A stretch of 52,407 nucleotides of DNA, from the UHGV virus genome UHGV-0113213, one strand, 5' to 3'. The DNA is from a virus. Position 1 is the first letter of the stretch. Every line of letters starts with the position of its first letter. This document shows, piece after piece, positions 12,937-46,071 of the stretch. Under the pieces are notes generated by a model. That model was not told where the DNA came from. It ran no database searches and was given only the letters and a program-made list of their open reading frames with translations. Made by a program: the position numbers and the translations under genes.

Positions 12937-13311
12937 ATGAAAAAAATAATCAAAGCGGTTCTCATTGGTGTTATGGCTTTAGCTCTTACAGGGTGCGCAA
13001 GATCAACTGATTTCGTTAAGTTAGCTGATAAAAATTTGCAAGTTGGAATGACTTGTGAGCAAGTGAATAAAATAATGGGGGAACCACAAAGAATCGAGCA
13101 TGACGGTAATTATAGTTATCACGTATGGTATTCAGTAACCAGCACGATAGGATTTACTTACATGGATGTTGAAGAATTATCCCCTTCAAGGGTTATCGCA
13201 AAGTTTGATAACTGCATCCTAAAAGAATGGAAAGATCGCAGTAAGGCAAAGTCTGTATACAATACAATCACACACAGTTCACCAGGTACAGCAATTAAAG
13301 ATTTCAATTAG
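12937..13311 (+). CDS. BamE/SmpA-OmlA-like lipoprotein (moron)
   Basis: LTGC lipobox; GMTCEQVNKIMGEPQ resembles the BamE motif. Confidence 0.5.
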   Translation: MKKIIKAVLIGVMALALTGCARSTDFVKLADKNLQVGMTCEQVNKIMGEPQRIEHDGNYSYHVWYSVTSTIGFTYMDVEELSPSRVIAKFDNCILKEWKDRSKAKSVYNTITHSSPGTAIKDFN

Positions 13312-23643: not shown

Positions 23644-23727
23644 TTAATATTTGTTGATGATATATACGCAAGCCACAAAACTTGCGCAATATGTTAATAC
23701 TTCCAACCAGTCGAATAGCTCTTTCAT
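23644..23727 (-). CDS. tiny TM peptide K (27 aa) MKELFDWLEVLTYCASFVACVYIINKY
   Basis: ATGA coupling with peptide J. Confidence 0.5.
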   Translation of the reverse strand: MKELFDWLEVLTYCASFVACVYIINKY

Positions 23728-23867
23728 TGTTGCCCCTTGAATATATGCTTCGCTTCTCTGTAAATTAGCGCACCAGTCATTACAATCGCGTATACGCATA
23801 ACATTAACGCGACGATAAGCACGCCAGAACAAAGCAAAAACATCAGTAGATCGATAAATTCAAACAT
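23724..23867 (-). CDS. tiny TM peptide J (47 aa) MFEFIDLLMFLLCSGVLIVALMLCVYAIVMTGALIYREAKHIFKGQQ
   Basis: RBS GGTGAGAAATATT. Confidence 0.55.
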   Translation of the reverse strand: MFEFIDLLMFLLCSGVLIVALMLCVYAIVMTGALIYREAKHIFKGQQ

Positions 23868-23875
23868 AATATTTC

Positions 23876-23944
23876 TCACCAGGAGAAAACAATAACAACC
23901 AACAGTGCGCTTATAGCTATAATTAAGAAATCACTATCAGACAT
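23876..23944 (-). CDS. tiny TM peptide I (22 aa) MSDSDFLIIAISALLVVIVFSW
   Basis: ATGTCTGA overlap with peptide H. Confidence 0.5.
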   Translation of the reverse strand: MSDSDFLIIAISALLVVIVFSW

Positions 23945-24011
23945 TGATAATTACCAAGATAATAAATAACGCAACTGTACACACGATCAACATAATATCA
24001 ATAGCGTTCAT
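23937..24011 (-). CDS. tiny TM peptide H (24 aa) MNAIDIMLIVCTVALFIILVIINV
   Basis: RBS GGTGAGCGA. Confidence 0.55.
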   Translation of the reverse strand: MNAIDIMLIVCTVALFIILVIINV

Positions 24012-24019
24012 TCGCTCAC

Positions 24020-24088
24020 CTACTGAGTCAGTGCTGTCATGGTAAGAACAATCGCGACAATCAGGAAAAAGAAATCAAGCCATTTCAT
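24020..24088 (-). CDS. tiny TM peptide G (22 aa) MKWLDFFFLIVAIVLTMTALTQ
   Basis: RBS GGAGTTAAA. Confidence 0.55.
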   Translation of the reverse strand: MKWLDFFFLIVAIVLTMTALTQ

Positions 24089-24103
24089 TTTAACTCCTGA
24101 GAT

Positions 24104-24175
24104 TCAGTTAACACTTAAAAGCACCGCAACGATGACAATCACTATAATCATGCAAAAGAAGTCTGCTTCTCTCAT
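24104..24175 (-). CDS. tiny TM peptide F (23 aa) MREADFFCMIIVIVIVAVLLSVN
   Basis: ATGA overlap with peptide E. Confidence 0.5.
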   Translation of the reverse strand: MREADFFCMIIVIVIVAVLLSVN

Positions 24176-24252
24176 CTTTTTAGCCCTCGATAAAAATCAA
24201 CAGCAATGACTACAACTACAGCCACCAGCAATAGCATTTCGTATGCGTTCAT
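24172..24252 (-). CDS. tiny TM peptide E (26 aa) MNAYEMLLLVAVVVVIAVDFYRGLKR
   Basis: ATGA overlap with peptide D. Confidence 0.5.
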   Translation of the reverse strand: MNAYEMLLLVAVVVVIAVDFYRGLKR

Positions 24253-24347
24253 TTGATGCTACCCATAACAAGGCCGATGATAATAATTATGGCGACAATG
24301 CCTAACATCATTCCGAACATAATCGCCATCAGTTCGAATATATCCAT
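24249..24347 (-). CDS. tiny TM peptide D (32 aa) MDIFELMAIMFGMMLGIVAIIIIIGLVMGSIK
   Basis: Follows peptide C closely. Confidence 0.5.
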   Translation of the reverse strand: MDIFELMAIMFGMMLGIVAIIIIIGLVMGSIK

Positions 24348-24350
24348 GCT

Positions 24351-24425
24351 TCAGCTTTCAATGAATATCATGATCGCCAGCCATACGGCGACGCATAAGG
24401 AAAGGATGATTAGCGGGTCAATCAT
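24351..24425 (-). CDS. tiny TM peptide C (24 aa) MIDPLIILSLCVAVWLAIMIFIES
   Basis: RBS GGGGTGAAAAT. Confidence 0.55.
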   Translation of the reverse strand: MIDPLIILSLCVAVWLAIMIFIES

Positions 24426-24429
24426 ATTT

Positions 24430-24534
24430 TCACCCCACCAAATACTTGATATATACGTTTATCAGCGCAACTATAATAGAACCAGCAAGAAACACAGAAA
24501 CGCCGATTAATACGGCAATGATGTAAGCGGCCAT
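24430..24534 (-). CDS. tiny TM peptide B (34 aa) MAAYIIAVLIGVSVFLAGSIIVALINVYIKYLVG
   Basis: TAATGA coupling; an alternative start lies 7 nt upstream. Confidence 0.5.
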   Translation of the reverse strand: MAAYIIAVLIGVSVFLAGSIIVALINVYIKYLVG

Positions 24535-24539
24535 AATCA

Positions 24540-24602
24540 TTACTTCCACAACAAAAACAATATTACAGCCGCCGCCATTCCGATAAATAAATAAGCGTCC
24601 AT
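24540..24602 (-). CDS. tiny TM peptide A (20 aa) MDAYLFIGMAAAVILFLLWK
   Basis: RBS GAGG; TGATTATG coupling to the upstream HExxH gene. Confidence 0.55.
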   Translation of the reverse strand: MDAYLFIGMAAAVILFLLWK

Positions 24603-24604
24603 AA

Positions 24605-25189
24605 TCAGCCTCGTTTAAAGCTCATTACACGCGGTACAAGCGCCTCTTTTGCTTTAGGCTTACGTTTGCCTTTCTTGGCTGGTTTTTTCTCTTCTTTCGG
24701 CTCCTCTGCCTGCTCTACTGCCTGTTCTGCTGCATCAGTCGCCTTTTCCGCCTGCTCCAATGCCTGCTCAACGACTTCAGCGGCCTGCATAGCTGCCAAC
24801 TGTGCTTCGTTAGATTCAGCCAGGATCGGGAAGAATGCATCAAAGATGCGGCCCACCATGTAAGCATATGTCTCGTTTGCCGGATGGCTTGGTTCTGTAG
24901 TCGCTACGACACCGACATCACTTAAAACGTGGAATGTAGTGTGAGCCGCTTCATGTACCAGCGTACCAAGCTCATTATCGAATACTGCGATCACGTAGAA
25001 GTTACCGCCTTTCTCGCCAGTGCAAGTAAGTGTTAAACCTCCTGCCAGTTCAAAATCAGGTTCGATTGGGATCCCTGCCTTTTCGCAAAATTCATAGAAC
25101 ATGTCACGAGTCGGGCAGAAGAAAACTGTTGTATGCTCGAAGAGCGGGACTTTGAATTGAGGCAACTTAATGCCTTTACCCTTAGCCAT
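24605..25189 (-). CDS. putative zinc metallopeptidase-like protein (HEAAHTTFH = HExxHxxxH), acidic linker, Lys-rich tail
   Basis: ImmA/IrrE-type HExxHxxxH signature. C-terminus KKPAKKGKRKPKAKE. Confidence 0.45.
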   Translation of the reverse strand: MAKGKGIKLPQFKVPLFEHTTVFFCPTRDMFYEFCEKAGIPIEPDFELAGGLTLTCTGEKGGNFYVIAVFDNELGTLVHEAAHTTFHVLSDVGVVATTEPSHPANETYAYMVGRIFDAFFPILAESNEAQLAAMQAAEVVEQALEQAEKATDAAEQAVEQAEEPKEEKKPAKKGKRKPKAKEALVPRVMSFKRG

Positions 25190-25526: not shown

Positions 25527-26015
25527 TTATTCTTTACGCAAGCACTGCGTTTTGATGTAGTCCTGTAGGCCAGTGATCTGTGCGTCTTTTATTTTTAGTT
25601 GTTCTCTGAGGGATAGATAAGCCGATTTAGCGTCGGCAGTAGGTTCGCAGGTGGCTCCATCAATGCGGCTGGAGGTTCCGGTATTACTGTCTGTTCGCAT
25701 TGGCACGGCGTTGACGCGCAACCGGATAGTACCGTTATCAATGCCAGTGCGCAGATCGGCAATGTCAGATCTGATAGCTTTAATCTCATCGTGATACCTC
25801 TTATCAAGTTTTGACAGTTCGGCGTTTCGCTCCTTCATCTGCTGAATAGTGTTACTTGCTGTCTTCAGTGCGCCTTTCGTCACCGTGACTTCTTCCTGTA
25901 ACCTTGTCGCCTCACCCTGGTAATAACACGTTACGGCGGTTAGTCCGGCAATAATGCAAACAACAGCGGCGATAATTAACGCCTTCACCTTGTCCACGTT
26001 TCCCCCCATTCGCAA
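25527..26015 (-). CDS. Rz: i-spanin Rz
   Basis: N-terminal TM, coiled coil; follows the endolysin gene. Confidence 0.7.
25595..25789 (-). CDS. Rz1: o-spanin Rz1 (embedded in the Rz +1 frame)
   Basis: Lipobox LSGC; proline-rich. Confidence 0.65.
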   Translation of the reverse strand: MRLKLSDLTLPICALALITVLSGCASTPCQCEQTVIPEPPAALMEPPANLLPTLNRLIYPSENN

Positions 26016-26476
26016 ACGGCATATTCAACATCTCGGCGGTTTACCAGGCCTTGCCACTTCTTACCACCAGCGTATACCCAGCGTTTAAGCTGTGCGCACG
26101 CCTCTGATTTCTTACCGTCATTGAGTAGCTTTAATAAGGTTGATGTTTTGAAGTTGGTTGCGCCTACGTTATAGGCGAATGAATAAAGCGCAGCGCGGGT
26201 AAAATCTGATATTTCGACTTTGATATATGGGTTAATCGCTTTTGCGGTTTTGTGGAGATCTTTGTTTAACAAAGTATCGCATTCTGATTGCGTGTAAGTC
26301 TTACCAAGCATGATGTCTTTTCCGGTGTGACCATAGCAAACAGTCCATACACCGATAACATCACGATAAGGATCGTACTCCACGCCCTCTAATGGTTTAA
26401 CCATCACAGCCGCAATAGCGATCGCCCCACCAGCCGCCGCAGCAATAATTTTATTCTTCAGCGATTGGCTAATCAT
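25985..26476 (-). CDS. R: SAR endolysin (phage 21 R-like lysozyme)
   Basis: [21 protein letters not shown]...YSFAYNVGA is near-identical to R21. N-terminal SAR domain rich in G and A. Confidence 0.85.
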
Positions 26477-26477
26477 G

Positions 26478-26678
26478 TTACTTATTCCCCATTCGCGCGT
26501 CGTGTTCCTCTTGCGCTCGCTTGTTCTCCTGTGATTTGAAGTAATAGTTAACGGCAAATGTGCCTATGGTTGATAAGATACCCACAAAGACAGCAATATC
26601 ATTAATGGTTATCGCGCCGAAAAAAGCAGTTACGGCCCCGGTCACATACGCGCACGCCTCCCGTATTCTGTCGAACAT
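26478..26678 (-). CDS. S: holin (S21 pinholin-like, 2 TMD)
   Basis: 66 aa, two TMDs, charged C-terminus; ATGA overlap with the endolysin. Confidence 0.7.
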
Positions 26679-26691
26679 AGATTTTCCTCCA

Positions 26692-26720
26692 ACAAAGCAA
26701 AAACCCGGCTCGTGGCCGGG
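26692..26720 (-). terminator. tR-prime-like terminator upstream of holin
   Basis: CCCGGCCACGAGCCGGG hairpin followed by TTTTTGCTTTGTT on the minus strand. Confidence 0.6.
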
Positions 26721-26783
26721 TAATTACAATTTCGCATTGTTAGGAAATATTTTAATCTATTTGTTTTTTATGCGCGATTATGG

Positions 26784-26966
26784 CTACAAATCACTAACTT
26801 TCACCAAATCGCCATTATCAAGCCAGATTTTAATTGTTTCTCGCGTCGTCTTGATGATTGGCGCTACCCACTCACCATCGCTAACGCAAACGCGAATATC
26901 ACCACCCTCTATGCGATAAAACATCTTGTCGATTAGTGTTACGGCGTATATACCATCTTCAATCAT
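26784..26966 (-). CDS. hypothetical 60 aa protein
   Basis: ORF in a tightly packed minus-strand operon. Confidence 0.35.
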   Translation of the reverse strand: MIEDGIYAVTLIDKMFYRIEGGDIRVCVSDGEWVAPIIKTTRETIKIWLDNGDLVKVSDL

Positions 26967-27157
26967 TTCTTGCGCTCCTTAATAACCCTTTTGATCTGCG
27001 CGCGCGCGGCATCTACGAGAGCAATAAACACCGCTACAGGCCAGAAAGGAATCTCAAGACCACCACGATCGAGATCATTAGATTTGATAAAACAAGACAT
27101 CAGGATAGCGCCAGCAATATAAAGGAGAAACACAGCAATGATAAGACATTCAATCAT
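26963..27157 (-). CDS. small membrane protein (64 aa)
   Basis: TM helix. Confidence 0.4.
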   Translation of the reverse strand: MIECLIIAVFLLYIAGAILMSCFIKSNDLDRGGLEIPFWPVAVFIALVDAARAQIKRVIKERKK

Positions 27158-27292
27158 CCTCTTTCTCCCCGCCTAAATATTGATATATTTCTTCAGCATT
27201 TTCCCCGCGCTCAAAACAATAATGTTCAAACATGCGCCAATTTTCACTAAGAAACATAACAATAAAATTGTTAACGTATTCGTCATCCATAG
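27155..27292 (-). CDS. hypothetical acidic 45 aa protein
   Basis: ATGA coupling. Confidence 0.3.
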
Positions 27293-34960: not shown

Positions 34961-35725
34961 TTAGTCCGGTAAAATGCGGTTAAGCGTAGTACGAGTGATG
35001 GCCCGGTCGTTAGCCAGGAATACAGCACGGGCAAAGCCGCGCGGCGTTAGTGAGCGGATCATCTTAGTGCGTTTCGACTCTCCTCCTAACTTCGCGTGCT
35101 GTTTGCTGTCTTCCCATTCATCCGGCATAGGTACAGGCCGGAATAGCGGCTGCTTAAATCCATTCCCGCACCAGATACAAGTTTTCTTCGTGTATGCGTC
35201 GCGGGCAGCTATGTATTCAGGGAAAGCAGGGTGTTTGTCGTCTTCAGGCAGGTAGCCACCGTAAGCGCACGGGTTGAAGATAAAATCAGGTTTGCGCCAT
35301 AACGTTGACAGCGCACCTACCGGATTTTCCACCATCCACGGGACGTGGTACATATCAGCAAGCGTTTCTACCAGTTTTGCGTTGTATACCGCCTTCTGCT
35401 GGAAGTAAGGTTCTTTTTTCCGCTTATCAGCAAACCAGCGAGCGCCGGACACCGCAAGATCGTCGCACGGAGGAAAGCCCAGGATAATGTCAGGATCTGG
35501 ATAAACAGACAATTCAGGGGAGAACATTACCAGGAAATGGCTGTCAATCCATACGTTGATATACTCAATGTTCGGATGAATGATTTTGACGCCTTCATAA
35601 TCGCCGTGATTAGCGCCATCATAGTTGAAGCAATAGCATTTATAACCAGCGTCGGCCCAATCTTTAACGGCGTATCCGCTGCCGTCGTACAGCGACCACA
35701 CCACCCAATTTCTAAGCCCACTCAT
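34961..35725 (-). CDS. C5-cytosine DNA methyltransferase-like protein (short, no obvious TRD)
   Basis: GFPPC (motif IV PC), ENPVGA (motif VI ENV-like), LYDGSGY (motif I-like). Confidence 0.4.
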   Translation of the reverse strand: MSGLRNWVVWSLYDGSGYAVKDWADAGYKCYCFNYDGANHGDYEGVKIIHPNIEYINVWIDSHFLVMFSPELSVYPDPDIILGFPPCDDLAVSGARWFADKRKKEPYFQQKAVYNAKLVETLADMYHVPWMVENPVGALSTLWRKPDFIFNPCAYGGYLPEDDKHPAFPEYIAARDAYTKKTCIWCGNGFKQPLFRPVPMPDEWEDSKQHAKLGGESKRTKMIRSLTPRGFARAVFLANDRAITRTTLNRILPD

Positions 35726-36225
35726 TTCCTACCCTCGAACGTAAAGTAGCGGCGCATGATGATAGTGATCACCGTTACCGCCGCCATTTTTGAGATGAAT
35801 TGCATAGCTGATATTTCCGGCATGAATGCCATAAACGATAGCGTTGGGAAAATTAACGCATCGCCAATGGCGGACGCTATATTTGCAGGCCAGCGTTTAG
35901 AATCGAAATCACCAGGTAAAACCCGGTAAACGCCGCCAGAAATAAGCGCACCGGAAACAACCGCGACGAATGACGCGATCGCCACCATTCCGGCGTCGTA
36001 ATTTATCAGCACCGTGATTGCGCCAGCGGCGGCGCATGTTGTAGCCGACCATTTAAGGCCGCCGTCATATAACAGAAAATCACGAATCATCATATTGACA
36101 CACACGGCGGCTACCGTGGTGATCGGAATTACCCACGGGCCACAGTGGTTAACAATAAGATTGATGATAACGAAAACGGCGACATAAACGCAGGCTAATA
36201 ACCTGTCAATTGCCACCATCTTCAT
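35722..36225 (-). CDS. YhhQ/DUF165 (queuosine-precursor transporter family)-like membrane protein
   Basis: SKRWPANIASAIGDALIFPTLSFMAF aligns with YhhQ SRRWWLAPTASTLFGNVSDTLAFFFIAF; polytopic. Confidence 0.5.
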   Translation of the reverse strand: MKMVAIDRLLACVYVAVFVIINLIVNHCGPWVIPITTVAAVCVNMMIRDFLLYDGGLKWSATTCAAAGAITVLINYDAGMVAIASFVAVVSGALISGGVYRVLPGDFDSKRWPANIASAIGDALIFPTLSFMAFMPEISAMQFISKMAAVTVITIIMRRYFTFEGRK

Positions 36226-37066: not shown

Positions 37067-37555
37067 TTAGAAATAATCCTGATCTGTTCCCCAGCGGTTA
37101 TTCAGATACCCCACCAACCACACAAAACGCTCAATACTGATTAGCGGGGCGACCTTGCGATAATGCTTATCTAATATCAGCCGCGTGGCTTTATCGCTGT
37201 AGCCGTTCTTCTCTACCTCCGCTTTGCAGGCCGAAAGCGCGGCGCGGGCGGCAGTCTTTACGGCGTTAAATTGCGGCTCTGACATATTGAATAAGGCCAT
37301 AGGATCACCATGTGTCAGTCCAATCCGGCGCGGCAGTCCAGCAAAAACCAATGAATGCGCTAACAGCCAATAAAGCGCGGGCTGCAAAAAGAATATTCCC
37401 AATGTCGTTAAATTCAGGAAGCGACCACGTAATAAACATAGCCCCAGCATAATAACACCGATAACAGTCATGGCCGCCAGGAAAACAAAAAGCGTAGCCA
37501 AAAGCCACGCCCCCAACCAGTTAAAAAAGCTCTTAAGCATTTTAAACGTCCTCAA
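37067..37555 (-). CDS. membrane protein (3-4 TM)
   Basis: Hydrophobic N-terminal half. Confidence 0.4.
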   Translation of the reverse strand: MRTFKMLKSFFNWLGAWLLATLFVFLAAMTVIGVIMLGLCLLRGRFLNLTTLGIFFLQPALYWLLAHSLVFAGLPRRIGLTHGDPMALFNMSEPQFNAVKTAARAALSACKAEVEKNGYSDKATRLILDKHYRKVAPLISIERFVWLVGYLNNRWGTDQDYF

Positions 37556-39309: not shown

Positions 39310-39490
39310 TTAACACCTCAACATATTGTTCAAGATGCCATCTCCCCACCTCATCATCTTCCTCATCAAATAATATTACTTGACCACCAGGCAAAAAAGA
39401 AAAGGCAGCTATAATAAACTCATAGCCATACCAAGTGCGGATCTTCTCACCGCCTTTCAGGTGTTTTACTTTCACTAATTTTATAGCCAT
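39299..39490 (-). CDS. hypothetical protein
   Basis: ORF. Confidence 0.3.
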   Translation of the reverse strand: MAIKLVKVKHLKGGEKIRTWYGYEFIIAAFSFLPGGQVILFDEEDDEVGRWHLEQYVEVLNEN

Positions 39491-39753
39491 ACGCCGTACA
39501 TCCCATTCAGCCCGGCAAACAATTTCCGCCAGTGGTCTTCAACATAATCCCGGAACGGCTTAACGCGAACATTGCGGGCCTTCAGTTCAATCTTGTCAAA
39601 GAAACGAGGCTCAATAATCGTTCCATCCAGATATTTAACCAGGATCGGGCGCTCAAGATCGTTATATGTCTTGTTCAGCACAACCAGACCAGGGTCGCTA
39701 CGATATTCTGGCAAAACAACAAGATCGCCATCTTTTGCATTCCAAGTAACCAT
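39481..39753 (-). CDS. hypothetical protein
   Basis: ORF. Confidence 0.35.
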   Translation of the reverse strand: MVTWNAKDGDLVVLPEYRSDPGLVVLNKTYNDLERPILVKYLDGTIIEPRFFDKIELKARNVRVKPFRDYVEDHWRKLFAGLNGMYGVWL

Positions 39754-39872
39754 CACATCGCCCCTTTACAAATAAAGCTAATCACCGCAGCAAGTGCGCC
39801 GCAAAACACAATCGTAAACAGGAAACAAATAACGCAAAAAGCGACCCTTACAATATTCTTGCAAACCTTCAT
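39753..39872 (-). CDS. 39 aa hydrophobic peptide MKVCKNIVRVAFCVICFLFTIVFCGALAAVISFICKGAM
   Basis: RBS GGGGTGAG; fills an otherwise ORF-free gap. Confidence 0.45.
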   Translation of the reverse strand: MKVCKNIVRVAFCVICFLFTIVFCGALAAVISFICKGAM

Positions 39873-39875
39873 AAC

Positions 39876-39995
39876 TCACCCCAACAATGCAACAATTAAT
39901 TCAGCAATAAAAACGGCGACATAAAAAGAAGCTGTGATATAAATCACCCCAATAACGAAGGCGGCGGCTAATGCCGCAATTTTTACCATGCTCAT
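39876..39995 (-). CDS. 39 aa hydrophobic peptide MSMVKIAALAAAFVIGVIYITASFYVAVFIAELIVALLG
   Basis: RBS GGAGGCTGATAA. Confidence 0.45.
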   Translation of the reverse strand: MSMVKIAALAAAFVIGVIYITASFYVAVFIAELIVALLG

Positions 39996-40231
39996 TTATC
40001 AGCCTCCGCAATGAACTTATCAAGCCATTTGTTATTGGCCAGGCGTTCGGCATCTTCGCCAAATGTTTTACGTTCGCTTAATTCCTTGCGCGTTGGTATA
40101 GGCCATTTATCGTGCCACCCGGCAGACGTTTCGAACTCATACAGGCCGCCGTTAAAAGTGACATAGTCATCAGATGAGTCAGGCAGCTCTTTATCAACAT
40201 CTTTTTCTTCGATCATGATTTGATACCTCAT
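39992..40231 (-). CDS. hypothetical protein
   Basis: ORF. Confidence 0.35.
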   Translation of the reverse strand: MRYQIMIEEKDVDKELPDSSDDYVTFNGGLYEFETSAGWHDKWPIPTRKELSERKTFGEDAERLANNKWLDKFIAEADK

Positions 40232-40929: not shown

Positions 40930-41573
40930 TAACCCATCTCCCCGTTAAGCTCTGCTACCCGGATGTCATAAACATCTTTTGCCTTGATTCGATGTTCCGA
41001 TCCTTCCGGTAGTAATTTCCAGCATTTGCCAAATATTTCACGCAGCTTGTTAGCGTCCTGCGCTTTCGCTGCTGCATCACAGAAACGTGCTAATACTTCA
41101 TCAGGATTTGGCGGCGCTTTCTGCTGCTGTGGTTGTTGTTTTGGTGGGTTTTTCTGCTGGCGAGGCTGCTGGCCTGTCTGCTTAGCGTATGCGTCAGTAT
41201 CAGGATCTCGCGCATCATCAATGCAGAATAAACCGTTCAAAGCGTATTTTCGCGCGTAACTTGATGTCGCACCTGTTAGCTGGCTTGCGTCCATTCCCTT
41301 CTTGCTTTCTTCTTCCCTGGCGTAAGCCGTTACCGCTATTTCGTCTTCACCGTCGCTTAGCGTCGCCGTAGCTTTCACATAATAGCGATTGCCGATCAGG
41401 ACAATTTCATCGCTTACAGTCAGCGTAATACTTTGAAGCAGTGGTTTAACCGCCTCTAAAATATCCTCCGCCGACCTGTAATTATATCCACCAAAATTAT
41501 TACGCTGATTTTTCGGCGCGTTCAGCGTTTGCTGAATCGTCCATAGCTTTTTATGTAACTCTGTTTTCACCAT
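40929..41573 (-). CDS. Erf-family single-strand annealing protein
   Basis: GGYNYRSAEDI...YARKYALNGLF. Confidence 0.6.
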   Translation of the reverse strand: MVKTELHKKLWTIQQTLNAPKNQRNNFGGYNYRSAEDILEAVKPLLQSITLTVSDEIVLIGNRYYVKATATLSDGEDEIAVTAYAREEESKKGMDASQLTGATSSYARKYALNGLFCIDDARDPDTDAYAKQTGQQPRQQKNPPKQQPQQQKAPPNPDEVLARFCDAAAKAQDANKLREIFGKCWKLLPEGSEHRIKAKDVYDIRVAELNGEMG

Positions 41574-41689
41574 TTAATCTCCCGTGCTGTTAACACTATG
41601 TATAAGGCTTTATTCGCGGCGCTCCACATTTCGGCATCGTGAAGCATTTCCGCTACTGCCAGTTTGAATTGAAGCGCCTGAATAACCAT
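41570..41689 (-). CDS. hypothetical 39 aa protein
   Basis: RBS GGAG; coupled to erf. Confidence 0.35.
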
Positions 41690-41719: not shown

Positions 41720-42010
41720 TTAATGGTAGCGGACTTTATCCAGGGGTTTTTCCCCTAAATGGCGTGGTTGCGTTGCGTGGTAGTAGCTGCCGCTTTCATT
41801 TTCCGTATACCATTTTACTGATCCTTTGCGACGTTCTTTAATGCTATTTGGTTTGCATCTTTCCTCGTTTGCAAATCGAATAGCTTTATCCACATTGTCT
41901 GTTTTATTGATTGCAGGTGATGATTTTCTTTCGTTTTCTCTTTTTATCCTTCTGCGTTCCCTGGCATTCATTTTGCTATCACATTTACCATATATAATTG
42001 TAACGCTCAT
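41720..42010 (-). CDS. N: N-like antitermination protein
   Basis: Arginine-rich motif NARERRRIKRENERK; first gene downstream of the pL candidate and a nutL-like boxA. Confidence 0.55.
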   Translation of the reverse strand: MSVTIIYGKCDSKMNARERRRIKRENERKSSPAINKTDNVDKAIRFANEERCKPNSIKERRKGSVKWYTENESGSYYHATQPRHLGEKPLDKVRYH

Positions 42011-43463: not shown

Positions 43464-43730
43464 ATGAGTATAAACATGATTAGTAAAGCATGGAACGTAA
43501 AACTTAATAGCCCGATTCAAAAACTTGTCTTAATGGCTCTGGCTGAAAAGGCAGATAACAAAGGACGGGTACATGATGCATCACGCAAAGAAGTAGCCGC
43601 AATGTGTGAACTTCCTGTTCATACGGTACATGATGCCTTCGCCGCGTTAATGGATAAAGGATTTGTTTGTCGTCTTGATGCATTCAGTGATGTCTATGTA
43701 GTGATGTTGCCGGGGGGGGATGATCTATGA
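43464..43730 (+). CDS. winged-HTH protein resembling the N-terminal DNA-binding domain of replication protein O
   Basis: KLVLMALAEKADNKGRVHDASRKEVAAMCELPVHTVHDAF resembles lambda O residues ~50-100. RBS AGGAGAAAATGCG. Confidence 0.45.
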   Translation: MSINMISKAWNVKLNSPIQKLVLMALAEKADNKGRVHDASRKEVAAMCELPVHTVHDAFAALMDKGFVCRLDAFSDVYVVMLPGGDDL

Positions 43731-44773
43731 AGTGGTTTAAGCATGACAGCGATGCGAACCGCGATGAAAAACTTCAAAACGTTTTGTTAGATTATGGCCT
43801 GGAAGGGTACGGGCTTTATTGGTATTGCCTCGAACTAATAACTTATGACGTAGATCAGCACAATCTGAATTTTGACCTACGACATGACGCGAGAATCATT
43901 GCGCGAAACGTCGGATCGACTGAAAAACGTATAGAAGAAATGATGAAATACTTCATCGAAATTGGTTTGTTTGAATGTTCTCAAGGCCACATAACTTGTT
44001 TAAAGTTATTGAAAAGGCTTGATCAATCAATGACTTCTAAAAGCGCGTACAGGGCCGCCATAAACACAGCTAAGGAGCAATTAAAATTAGAAAAGTTAAT
44101 CAATCCAACACAAAAAGGTCATGATAGGGTCATGACCGGGTCAGGAAAGGGTCATGAATTAGAAGTAGAAGAAGAAAGAGAAAAAGATATATACACTTCG
44201 TGTATTGTCGAAAATGAACAAAAAATGTTCAATCGGGATGGCGTAAACGAAGCGGCATTGCGTTGTCTTTCCTTCTACAACGACAAGGCAGGATGCAAAT
44301 GTCGTGATGCGAAGCCATTCATAGAACTACTGACAGAAACAAAAACACGTAAAGCATATACTGAGGAAGAAATCACATTAGTAATCGAGTGGGCTTTAAC
44401 GCAATGGCGTAGCCGTGGTGGAACACCTAAGCCTATCAACATTTGCCGGGTAACTAAATTTGATGGGTATCTGGCTGATGCTGAACAATGGCGCAAACTG
44501 TCAGCCACTGCAAACGCTGCCGATGTGGTGGAAGCATTTAACAGCACGTTTGACGGTCTGTTACCACATGCCGAACTGGATCGGGATCTTGAACGTAAGA
44601 TCTATGCGTTCACTGACTACCTGAAAGACAAAAGCATCACTGGCTTTATTGCTTACTTTGAGGCGTTCAAAAACACGGCTTCAGATTTTTACTTCGGCAA
44701 TGGCTTTACTGCGACACTGGATTTTCTACTTAAACCAAAAACGCTACGTGATACACGATGTGGCGCTCTTTGA
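43727..44773 (+). CDS. replisome organiser / replication initiation protein (Phage_rep_org_N-like)
   Basis: MKWFKHDSDANRDEKL N-terminus; iterons embedded in the linker region. Confidence 0.55.
   Translation: MKWFKHDSDANRDEKLQNVLLDYGLEGYGLYWYCLELITYDVDQHNLNFDLRHDARIIARNVGSTEKRIEEMMKYFIEIGLFECSQGHITCLKLLKRLDQSMTSKSAYRAAINTAKEQLKLEKLINPTQKGHDRVMTGSGKGHELEVEEEREKDIYTSCIVENEQKMFNRDGVNEAALRCLSFYNDKAGCKCRDAKPFIELLTETKTRKAYTEEEITLVIEWALTQWRSRGGTPKPINICRVTKFDGYLADAEQWRKLSATANAADVVEAFNSTFDGLLPHAELDRDLERKIYAFTDYLKDKSITGFIAYFEAFKNTASDFYFGNGFTATLDFLLKPKTLRDTRCGAL
44117..44200. promoter_or_regulatory. candidate replication origin: four GGTCATGA iterons at 11-bp spacing, then an AT/purine-rich tract
   Basis: Iterons at 44117, 44128, 44139 (degenerate) and 44150; followed by agaagtagaagaagaaagagaaaaagatatata. 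Confidence 0.5.
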
Positions 44774-44905
44774 CCAATCACGATCCGCAAAAATCCAAAA
44801 TTACCCACAAACAACCTCACCAGCTAGCTAAATCGCATGTGGTGCTACACTTGCTTACCTTTTTGCGATTAGCTCGTTATAGAGCGTTACAGAGAGGATT
44901 TTAAA

Positions 44906-45007
44906 ATGGACGGTAAACACGTTTTCGCCCTGGCTTTTGCCATCGCTGCGGCAATCGCTGTTAACGTCGCCTTGTTCGGCGGATTGTATCTGCTAGTTAA
45001 TCCATAA
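44906..45007 (+). CDS. 33 aa hydrophobic peptide MDGKHVFALAFAIAAAIAVNVALFGGLYLLVNP
   Basis: RBS AGAGGA; fills an intergenic gap. Confidence 0.35.
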   Translation: MDGKHVFALAFAIAAAIAVNVALFGGLYLLVNP

Positions 45008-45147
45008 CTACCCTTCTACCTTAAAAATCGAAAATTAGCCACATGATTGCGCTTCTGGCGCAAAAAAGACACTGCAACCTTACAAGTGGGTTACGCGGTG
45101 GGTTTTTGCGTTGTAGCGCGTCTGAGGCGTTTTAAGGAGTTGGATCG

Positions 45148-46071
45148 ATGCGCAAGTTAACACATGATGAACAGGTTGCGGCTATCGCTAAGGTTAATCA
45201 TGATGTCGAAGTGCTTGGGGAAATTGTCAATAACAGGACAAAAGTATCCTGCCGCTGCAAGGTTTGCAGTCACGAATGGTCGGCTAGACCTTACAATCTT
45301 AAAAGCGGTTACGGCTGCCCGAAATGCGCCGGAAAGATGAAATTATCACACGAAGAACAGGTTGCCGCTATCGAGAAGGTTAATTCTGATGTCGAAGTGA
45401 TTGGCGAAATAATAAACGGCGATACAAAAGCATTATGCCGCTGCAAAGTTTGTAATCACGAATGGTCGGCTAAACCTAACAACCTAAAAAACGGGCGCGG
45501 CTGCCCGAAATGTAAAGGTTTAAAAATCGCACAAAGACGAACATTATCACACGAAGAACATTTATCCGCTATCACTAAGGTAAATCATGATATTGAAGTA
45601 TTGGGAGAAATAATAAACGATAGGACAAAAGTATTATGTCGATGCAAGGTTTGTGATCATAAGTGGTCGCCTAGACCTTATGCTATTAAAAGCGGGCAAG
45701 GCTGCCCGAAATGTGCGAAACACGGTTTTTTGTCACACAATTTCGGCAAACTTTACATCATGGTTGATGATCCTGAAGTGCCTACACAAATGAAAATCGG
45801 CGTAAGCGTTAATGAGAACAAGCGAAGAAATCGGGTATTAAAAAGCGCACATAAATCAGGCGTTAGAATCCCTGATTTATGTGTCGTGAAAACGTTAGAA
45901 GGTCCAACCGAAAATATCCATGAATTAGAAAGCACGATGCATAAATATTTCAGCAATTATAAAATTAACTTTCCTGTAAAATTTGATGGCAGTAATGAGT
46001 TTTTCTATTACAGGCCGGAAGTATTCGACATGGTAGAAGAAGCATATAAAGAGATTGTTTGCTGTCAATGA
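45148..46071 (+). CDS. protein with 3 tandem zinc-ribbon repeats plus C-terminal GIY-YIG/T5orf172-like domain
   Basis: Three copies of CRCKVCxHEWS..P...K.G.GCPKC; C-terminus GKLYIMVDD...MKIGVS. Confidence 0.5.
   Translation: MRKLTHDEQVAAIAKVNHDVEVLGEIVNNRTKVSCRCKVCSHEWSARPYNLKSGYGCPKCAGKMKLSHEEQVAAIEKVNSDVEVIGEIINGDTKALCRCKVCNHEWSAKPNNLKNGRGCPKCKGLKIAQRRTLSHEEHLSAITKVNHDIEVLGEIINDRTKVLCRCKVCDHKWSPRPYAIKSGQGCPKCAKHGFLSHNFGKLYIMVDDPEVPTQMKIGVSVNENKRRNRVLKSAHKSGVRIPDLCVVKTLEGPTENIHELESTMHKYFSNYKINFPVKFDGSNEFFYYRPEVFDMVEEAYKEIVCCQ
45157..45729. repeat. three ~190-200 bp tandem repeats (zinc-ribbon units)
   Basis: Protein-level triplication mirrored in the DNA. Confidence 0.6.

Follow-up and report, generated by a model that had tools for sequence, protein, structure and literature searches.

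Many small inner-membrane proteins of bacteria bind and regulate larger ones, among them KdpF (29 amino acids, aa), PmrR, MgtS (31 aa), CydX (37 aa), AcrZ (49 aa) and MgrB (47 aa) (PMC12648545). LysM (SglM), one of the single-gene lysis proteins of phages, comes from levivirus M; it is a membrane protein of 37 residues and blocks MurJ, the flippase of lipid II (PMC12506998). Conserved hydrophobic micro-open reading frames (micro-ORFs) are abundant in Enterobacteriaceae (PMC11188072), and artificial “traptamers”, 26-aa helices of Leu and Ile, bind receptors specifically (PMC5597333). Here we consider three open reading frames (ORFs), A, B and C, in the UHGV virus genome UHGV-0113213 (52,407 nt; hereafter the window, in whose numbering all coordinates are given). 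We are confident, from the kept frames, the substitution ratios and the whole-codon indels seen among relatives, that each of the three is a genuine gene, coding for a protein and kept by selection. As to what they do, we tentatively favour a role as microproteins of the inner membrane, made early and acting by binding to other membrane proteins. The three ORFs and the two genes that enclose A and B are as follows.

ORF A, 39876-39995, minus strand: 39 aa, single hydrophobic helix, MSMVKIAALAAAFVIGVIYITASFYVAVFIAELIVALLG; 35-39 aa in relatives.
ORF B, 39753-39872, minus strand: 39 aa, Phe/Cys-rich single helix, MKVCKNIVRVAFCVICFLFTIVFCGALAAVISFICKGAM; 38-40 aa in relatives.
ORF C, 44906-45007, plus strand: 33 aa, single helix, MDGKHVFALAFAIAAAIAVNVALFGGLYLLVNP.
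Gene U, 39992-40231, minus strand: 5' neighbour of ORF A, 74-79 aa, phrog_28542, with weak DUF2737 similarity.
Gene D, 39481-39756, minus strand: 3' neighbour of ORF B, 90 aa, phrog_28396.

The small inner-membrane proteins of bacteria are the nearest likeness in form: like KdpF, PmrR, MgtS, CydX, AcrZ and MgrB, the products of A, B and C are shorter than 50 aa, have one predicted transmembrane (TM) helix and almost no soluble part (a trait of KdpF and PmrR especially), are constrained in sequence and often go unannotated. The bacterial proteins, in contrast, are chromosomal, usually stress-regulated and have identified partners, whereas A, B and C belong to the early operons of a phage and bear no detectable sequence relationship to them. 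LysM is likewise a phage peptide of about 37 aa with a single helix, which it wedges into a host membrane protein, and it shows that a peptide this small can have a specific function. It differs in being the lysis gene of a single-stranded RNA phage; the present phage, with double-stranded DNA, has its own lysis cassette, and the sequences of A, B and C, which are early genes, do not resemble LysM. Papillomavirus E5 (44 aa) and the traptamers also consist of a TM helix only and bind specific membrane targets by the packing of helices, but these are eukaryotic systems and the analogy is purely functional. The “Entero67K” micro-ORFs (PMC11188072) share with A, B and C a length of 15-70 codons, a location in annotation gaps, purifying selection and, for the most part, a predicted TM segment, although that catalogue is a statistical inventory.

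Hydrophobic ORFs of 20-70 codons number about 50 in the window and lie mostly inside longer genes in other frames. With chance hydrophobic mini-ORFs this frequent, the case for A, B and C has to rest on comparison with relatives and not on hydrophobicity. The window prophage is 99.9% identical to a prophage of Escherichia coli M1/5, and its A/B segment is 83-88% identical to those of mEp021, mEp010, mEp013, mEp044, mEp515, mEp554 and MagusPhagus; by sequence identity, the window is a prophage of the mEp021 or “mEpimmI” group, which comprises Nus-dependent non-lambdoid coliphages (PMC11893012). A and B were compared at 45 loci (seven phage records, 30 IMG/VR contigs, seven E. coli chromosomes and the window). 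U and D lie 231-242 nt apart in 44 of these, the exception being strain STEC308 with its inserted gene; B is intact at every locus and A at all but one, the sole broken copy coming from a metagenome contig in which a run of five A (A5) has lost one base. ORF C was compared at 44 loci (43 contigs and the window) and is present in 42, a different gene standing in its place in one of the others and the contig ending too early in the second. In three contigs its ATG is replaced by ATT, and an in-frame TTG lies two codons upstream.

The pattern of substitution points the same way. The ratio of nonsynonymous to synonymous substitution (dN/dS), computed by the Nei-Gojobori method for A, B and D, is 0.20 for A (proportion of synonymous differences, pS, 0.57; 23 distinct sequences), 0.31 for B (pS 0.43; 26 distinct sequences) and 0.20 for the flanking gene D; that of C is 0.17 (pS 0.29; 26 distinct nucleotide sequences). 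Synonymous divergence at these loci is near saturation, with a dS of about 1 for A and B, and the frames are still open. The alternative frames give ratios of 0.8-2.1 (0.8-1.7 for those of A and B), save, as expected, the codon-aligned antisense frame at 0.31-0.39. For A, each of the five alternative frames has stops in 14-23 of the 23 sequences and the named frame alone is open in all. Two antisense frames of B are open in about three quarters of the sequences, and some antisense frames of B and C are largely or fully open; across the combined span of A and B no alternative frame stays open. Variation in A is concentrated in the third codon position, 35 of 39 such columns being variable as against 18 of those at the second position, and length varies in whole codons, A being 35, 37 or 39 aa long and B 38, 39 or 40. 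One competing frame, an antisense ORF of 130 aa (39532-39924, plus strand), was rejected for its stops in relatives. Public assemblies also hold rare frameshifted or fused versions (P0024-P0028; L014 2260-2380; L062 2102-2444), in which A is read into another frame, B is fused to D, or a deletion makes an A-B hybrid, as well as one tandem duplication of C at a contig end; these versions, and the copy of A with the one-base deletion, probably reflect rare mutants or mistakes of sequencing or assembly.

It could be argued that A and B are translated yet functionless, young ORFs read merely to keep translation coupled from U to D, with the peptide sequence irrelevant. That the peptides are lineage-restricted orphans and that hydrophobic micro-ORFs arise easily (PMC11188072) would suit this account, but ratios of 0.17-0.31 and invariant residues show that the amino-acid sequence is constrained, beyond the need for an open frame. 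Moreover, in STEC308 (NZ_CP091020.1) a 714-nt KilA-N gene (locus L084, 784-1497) sits exactly at the 8-10-nt A/B junction and leaves both ORFs intact, a clean case of a moron inserting at a gene boundary, from which it follows that mosaic exchange treats A and B as separate genes. That both survive an insertion between them also speaks against filler, and we regard this alternative as very unlikely.

The layout of the locus bears out the original prediction, which described two hydrophobic 39-aa minus-strand peptides at 39753-39995 as coupled mini-ORFs, each with a ribosome-binding site, that exactly fill a gap between two genes. A and B together occupy the U-D gap without remainder: U and A overlap in ATGA, which holds the stop of the former and the start of the latter, the ATG of B follows three bases after the stop of A, and the stop of B shares TGATG with the ATG of D. 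Read from these overlaps, A and B are translationally coupled to their neighbours. Each of the three ORFs is preceded by a Shine-Dalgarno (SD) sequence.

SD of ORF A, 40003-40007, minus strand: GGAGG, 7 nt from the ATG, within the 3' end of gene U.
SD-like site of ORF B, 39875-39882, minus strand: GGGGTGAG, overlapping the stop codon of ORF A.
SD of ORF C, 44892-44897, plus strand: GAGAGG, 8 nt from the ATG.

The motif GCGGAGG before A is invariant in all 30 aligned relatives, the site before B reads GTGAGG with a 6-nt spacer in most of them, and GAGAGGA before C is conserved in nearly all 42 loci. Pairing energies with the 3' end of 16S rRNA are -9.5 (A), -6.0 (B) and -6.5 kcal/mol (C), against a median of -1.8 kcal/mol over all 1971 ATGs of the window, which places the three in the top 1.2%, 8% and 5.6%, respectively; accepted genes of the same operons have pairing energies in a similar range.

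A further possibility is that the segment is a non-coding spacer or RNA element whose ORFs are accidental. What speaks for it is that the mEp021 record marks a “terminator” within ORF A, at a GC hairpin that recurs in most relatives.

GC hairpin within ORF A, 39961-39977, minus strand: GCGGC-ATTA-GCCGC, 5-6 bp in most relatives.

The hairpin has no U-run. Over the alignment (columns 49-53 and 61-65) 86% of cells are paired, and 66-70% still are after the partner columns are slid by three positions either way; this persistence suggests that the hairpin mostly reflects alanine codons. The central pair is C:G in 15 sequences, G:C in four, A:U in one and unpaired in 10. The element is therefore probably, for the most part, a by-product of Ala-Ala..Ala-Ala (GCN-GCN) codons, and given the third-position substitutions, the frames kept open at a dS of about 1 and the whole-codon indels, a non-coding origin of the ORFs is extremely improbable.

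The products of A, B and C are very probably single helices inserted in the membrane. Each has one hydrophobic stretch 25-28 residues long, roughly from residue 6 to residue 31; over 19 residues the highest Kyte-Doolittle mean is 2.32 in A, 2.84 in B and 2.55 in C, and all three have a negative summed apparent free energy on the Hessa scale. The residues flanking the helix number 5-10 at most and form no soluble domain, and the ends are 2-5 residues that are uncharged or singly charged. One strongly hydrophobic segment each is what the original prediction had called for in assigning one TM helix per peptide, and its third peptide of 33 aa on the plus strand is ORF C, the purifying selection described above backing all three.

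The residues that do not vary are not an arbitrary set of hydrophobic ones. In A they are K5, I6, A7, L9, A11, Y19, S23, I30, L33 and I34, with A7/A11 (AxxxA) and Y19/S23 spaced at i/i+4 and with the stripe extended by T27 in most relatives, though by A27 in the allele of the window. The invariant residues of B are M1, V3, F12, C13, F17, F19, G25, A28, A29 and I34, G25/A29 (GxxxA) forming the i/i+4 pair. The invariant pattern of C, ...K..F...FAIA..I.VNV.LFGGL.L...., includes a mid-helix Asn20 and Gly25-Gly26, with F7/F11 and I13/I17 at i/i+4; small residues recur every four positions (A10, A14, A18, A22, G26), only A14 and G26 of these being invariant. GxxxG-like motifs and polar residues in membrane helices are typical of specific helix-packing faces. 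The invariant positions of A, B and C, mostly small or polar at i/i+4, would resemble such faces.

We therefore favour, tentatively, binding between proteins within the membrane over bulk membrane damage. A, B and C would be “tail-less” early inner-membrane microproteins of one hydrophobic helix each, which would insert into the inner membrane and then pack side by side with helices of host or phage membrane proteins; the lack of a soluble domain confines their action to the membrane. Binding would modulate or block the partner, as the known bacterial small membrane proteins and LysM do. Two bigger predicted membrane proteins are encoded in the same minus-strand operon as A and B (35722-36225, minus strand, 167 aa; 37067-37555, minus strand, 162 aa), each with at least two hydrophobic segments, and are possible phage-encoded partners of the micro-peptides.

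It is also possible, though we hold it doubtful, that A and B form a heterodimer, acting together as an antiparallel pair. Among relatives the net charges of the C-terminus of A and the N-terminus of B fall into three allele classes, (+1,+1), (-1,+3), which is the class of the window, and (0,+2), and the matching charges of the N-terminus of A and the C-terminus of B are (+1,+1), (+1,+1) and (+2,0). For 14 of the 15 distinct A-B pairs each of the two sums comes to +2, and one pair sums to +1. Such compensation weakly suggests an antiparallel A:B pair.

Several points weigh against this interpretation as a whole. With three allele classes only, the charge pattern would arise by chance about once in six pairing permutations, and tight linkage alone accounts for the co-occurrence of A and B alleles. 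The spacing of small residues is common in any Ala/Gly-rich helix, and A and B show no positive-inside bias, so that their topology is not predictable. Confinement to one phage group may mean that these are dispensable accessory genes with subtle effects. Finally, the translation and membrane insertion of A, B and C are predictions from sequence.

Searches of protein families place the three peptides outside all known groups examined. A, B and C have no match in the Pfam, PHROGs, NCBIfam or PADLOC libraries. A phmmer search of A against 1.84 billion representatives found its own cluster alone. In tblastn against 50,697 phage genomes, B was confined to seven mEpimmI phages, and A had no match, presumably being masked by the BLAST low-complexity filter. 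A concatenated A+B profile run against a large protein database returned mainly 40-aa variants of B and a few frameshift fusions, with no match shorter than 40 aa. No homologues of A, B or C were found outside the mEpimmI group in these searches, and by sequence they are orphans restricted to that lineage. Paralogy among A, B, C and the array of hydrophobic ORFs described below was rejected, the best shuffle z-score being 4.6 in one of 42 comparisons and that of A against B 1.6.

Several functional classes were considered and set aside. A holin, pinholin or antiholin role was rejected, A, B and C lying 12-18 kb from the lysis cassette and having no charged hydrophilic C-terminal tail. A lipoprotein of the Cor, Llp or mEpimmI Lpp type was rejected for lack of a lipobox ([LVI][ASTVI][GAS]C), A and C having no Cys and the Cys of B being preceded by F or I; the lipoprotein gene of this phage lies apart from them, at 12937-13311. 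A hydrophobic run of 25-28 residues is too long for the core of a signal peptide. Two-peptide (class IIb) bacteriocins, adjacent pairs of 25-40-aa peptides with GxxxG-like motifs, are resembled only in outward features, A and B being adjacent and coupled and carrying AxxxA (A7/A11) and GxxxA (G25/A29); neither peptide has a double-glycine leader, and there is no transporter gene among the window ORFs.

The class of type I toxins deserves a fuller account. Small early toxins might oligomerise and depolarise or permeabilise the inner membrane, as TisB, Hok, Ldr or viroporins do, bringing about host shutdown or division arrest, a Kil-like effect without homology. A, B and C match the type I toxins (Hok, Ldr, TisB, Ibs, ShoB, DinQ) in length, hydrophobicity and single helix, and those toxins too are frequently associated with prophages; the invariant mid-membrane Asn of C and its Gly/Ala zipper-like face favour homo-oligomers, the conserved Tyr/Ser(/Thr) stripe of A could line a pore, and the ORFs would be expressed early, alongside host-takeover genes (Abc2 and a Kil-like ORF). 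However, known toxins of this size usually have charged or polar tails and tight translational control, whereas A, B and C have strong ribosome-binding sites and coupled translation, and lie not at a stand-alone locus but in long operons on which a productive early phase depends. The Hok/Gef, Ldr, TisB, Ibs and ShoB families in Pfam or NCBIfam are matched by none of them, no opposite-strand promoter-like site is present at 39700-40000 or 44850-45050, and Rfam has no match anywhere in the window, so that no antisense promoter or antitoxin RNA was found. Membership of the type I toxin-antitoxin class was rejected on these grounds, and membrane-damaging toxins in the broader sense are, in our judgement, unlikely.

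The comparison with Kil leads to the same place. Lambda Kil is, like A, B and C, a short early-operon product of a temperate coliphage, but it is not a membrane helix, and in Pfam and PHROGs at E<=1 none of the three matches Kil (PF06301, phrog_2055). The phage already has a gene of that kind.

Kil-like ORF, 41567-41689, minus strand: 40 aa, between the N-like gene and erf, the canonical place of kil.

Its matches are weak, PF06301 at E=2.2e-4 (below the curated cut-off) and phrog_2055 at E=1.4e-3, and are the only ones of their kind; it is probably the “Kil-like protein” of the mEpimmI core genome. The term as it had been applied to A, B and C is best kept as an analogy.

The timing of expression matters for the remaining alternative. 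A and B lie in the minus-strand early operon, where the order is a promoter-like site, the N-like gene, the Kil-like ORF, Erf, SSB, Abc2, U, A, B, D and many small genes. ORF C comes directly after the replication gene (43727-44773) in the divergent plus-strand early operon.

Promoter-like site of the minus-strand early operon, 42387-42359, minus strand.
N-like antiterminator gene, 41720-42010, minus strand: phrog_271.

In mEp021 the N-like protein Gp17 antiterminates the corresponding operon at nut sites (PMC11893012). Judged by these positions, A, B and C should be switched on early, in lytic growth or upon induction, and stay off in the repressed lysogen. They might then act in early superinfection exclusion, blocking the entry of DNA from a secondary phage during the lytic cycle by way of an inner-membrane entry component, as T4 Imm and Sp do. 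The predicted inner-membrane location and early expression agree with this, and the mEpimmI phages do invest in exclusion, for instance through an Lpp-type lipoprotein (PMC11893012). But the lysogen, in which exclusion is of most benefit, would keep A, B and C repressed, and the peptides have no similarity to known exclusion proteins or defence models. We consider exclusion improbable as the explanation; it is, besides, a biological role and not a separate mechanism, and overlaps with binding to a membrane protein.

PGAP gives the flanking gene D the label “toxin-antitoxin system toxin subunit” in a number of E. coli genomes, and the mEp021 record has a similar one, but the label could not be confirmed and appears unsupported: D has no match in NCBIfam, Pfam, PADLOC or PDB, its profile found nothing in one genome per bacterial species (GTDB), and its single-sequence AlphaFold model, with a predicted local distance difference test score (pLDDT) of 49, is unusable.

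The surroundings of C agree in part with what had been claimed for it. That C precedes a zinc-ribbon gene holds by position, but a folding spacer of 140 nt separates the two, and it is to the replication gene that C is linked in relatives, the gene 3' of it being variable.

Zinc-ribbon gene, 45148-46071, plus strand: three CxxC...CxxC repeats; matches endonuclease, HNH and homing-endonuclease PHROGs.

Its PHROG matches include phrog_681 (E=2.7e-57) and phrog_559, and its replacement in some relatives is consistent with a mobile endonuclease-like cassette. The spacer (45005-45150, plus strand) folds at -49.3 kcal/mol (z = -3.6 against shuffles), has no Rfam match and could be a terminator or other regulatory RNA. 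Many related contigs carry the same sequence, which is read there as a spurious “GYAVGFCVVARLRRFKELDRC” ORF.

The phage has hydrophobic mini-ORFs besides A, B and C.

Tandem hydrophobic array, 23724-24602, minus strand: 10-11 ORFs of 20-51 codons, most with an SD-like site.
Hydrophobic ORF, 27173-27286, minus strand: 37 codons, immediately upstream of the 64-aa ORF.
Two-helix holin-like ORF, 26963-27157, minus strand: 64 aa, phrog_10061.
Lysis cassette, 25527-27157: Rz (phrog_13), endolysin (phrog_7) and the 64-aa holin-like ORF with two TM segments.

The array lies between the lysis region (Rz at 25527-26015 and a gene of unknown function at 24605-25189) and the small terminase gene. Its copy number varies, with eight members in mEp554 (L088, 496-1225) and four in mEp021 (L089, 999-1318), and some of the encoded peptides are almost the same from phage to phage. 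At its N-terminus the endolysin (25985-26557) carries a hydrophobic segment resembling a signal-anchor-release (SAR) sequence, which suggests a lysis system of the pinholin/SAR-endolysin type. At the level of ORFs, the earlier count of at least 14 micro-membrane peptides, made up of the array members and A, B and C, holds; with at least one more, the ORF at 27173-27286, it may be an underestimate. One may imagine all of these, about 15 tail-less single-helix peptides from A, B, C, the copy-variable array at 23.7-24.6 kb and 27173-27286, as “transmembrane aptamers” made by nature, every one of them fitted to a particular inner-membrane protein of the host that it binds and either disables or turns to another use, with A and B as an obligate antiparallel heterodimer whose interface co-evolves; taken jointly, this is an unlikely combination.

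A, B and C are not undiscovered genes, being already present in some annotations, and they are of an ordinary kind for a phage. For six of the seven related phages, the PHANOTATE/pharokka records include A and B under the name hypothetical protein, C is listed in the annotations of mEp013 and mEp044, and the exact sequences occur in GenBank on hundreds of contigs, with several E. coli records among those that list them, as “hypothetical protein” or “putative membrane protein”. RefSeq/PGAP leaves out both A and B in M1/5 and WCHEC025970 and has only B in UMNK88, the original mEp021 record leaves out all three, and the mEpimmI paper and its supplements (PMC11893012) do not mention the peptides. 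The prophage of M1/5 thus appears in RefSeq/PGAP with an “empty” gap of 240 nt, and together with the lack of protein-database matches below 40 aa this leaves three genes that selection maintains invisible in common resources. Since small hydrophobic phage ORFs of no assigned function are common, current views are unchanged by the finding. What it adds is that a gut-prevalent group of coliphages keeps minimal proteins of one helix in its early operons; should their partners be found, A, B and C would be simple and genetically tractable cases of a bare TM helix targeting a bacterial membrane protein, and may provide leads for peptide inhibitors, as LysM does for MurJ.

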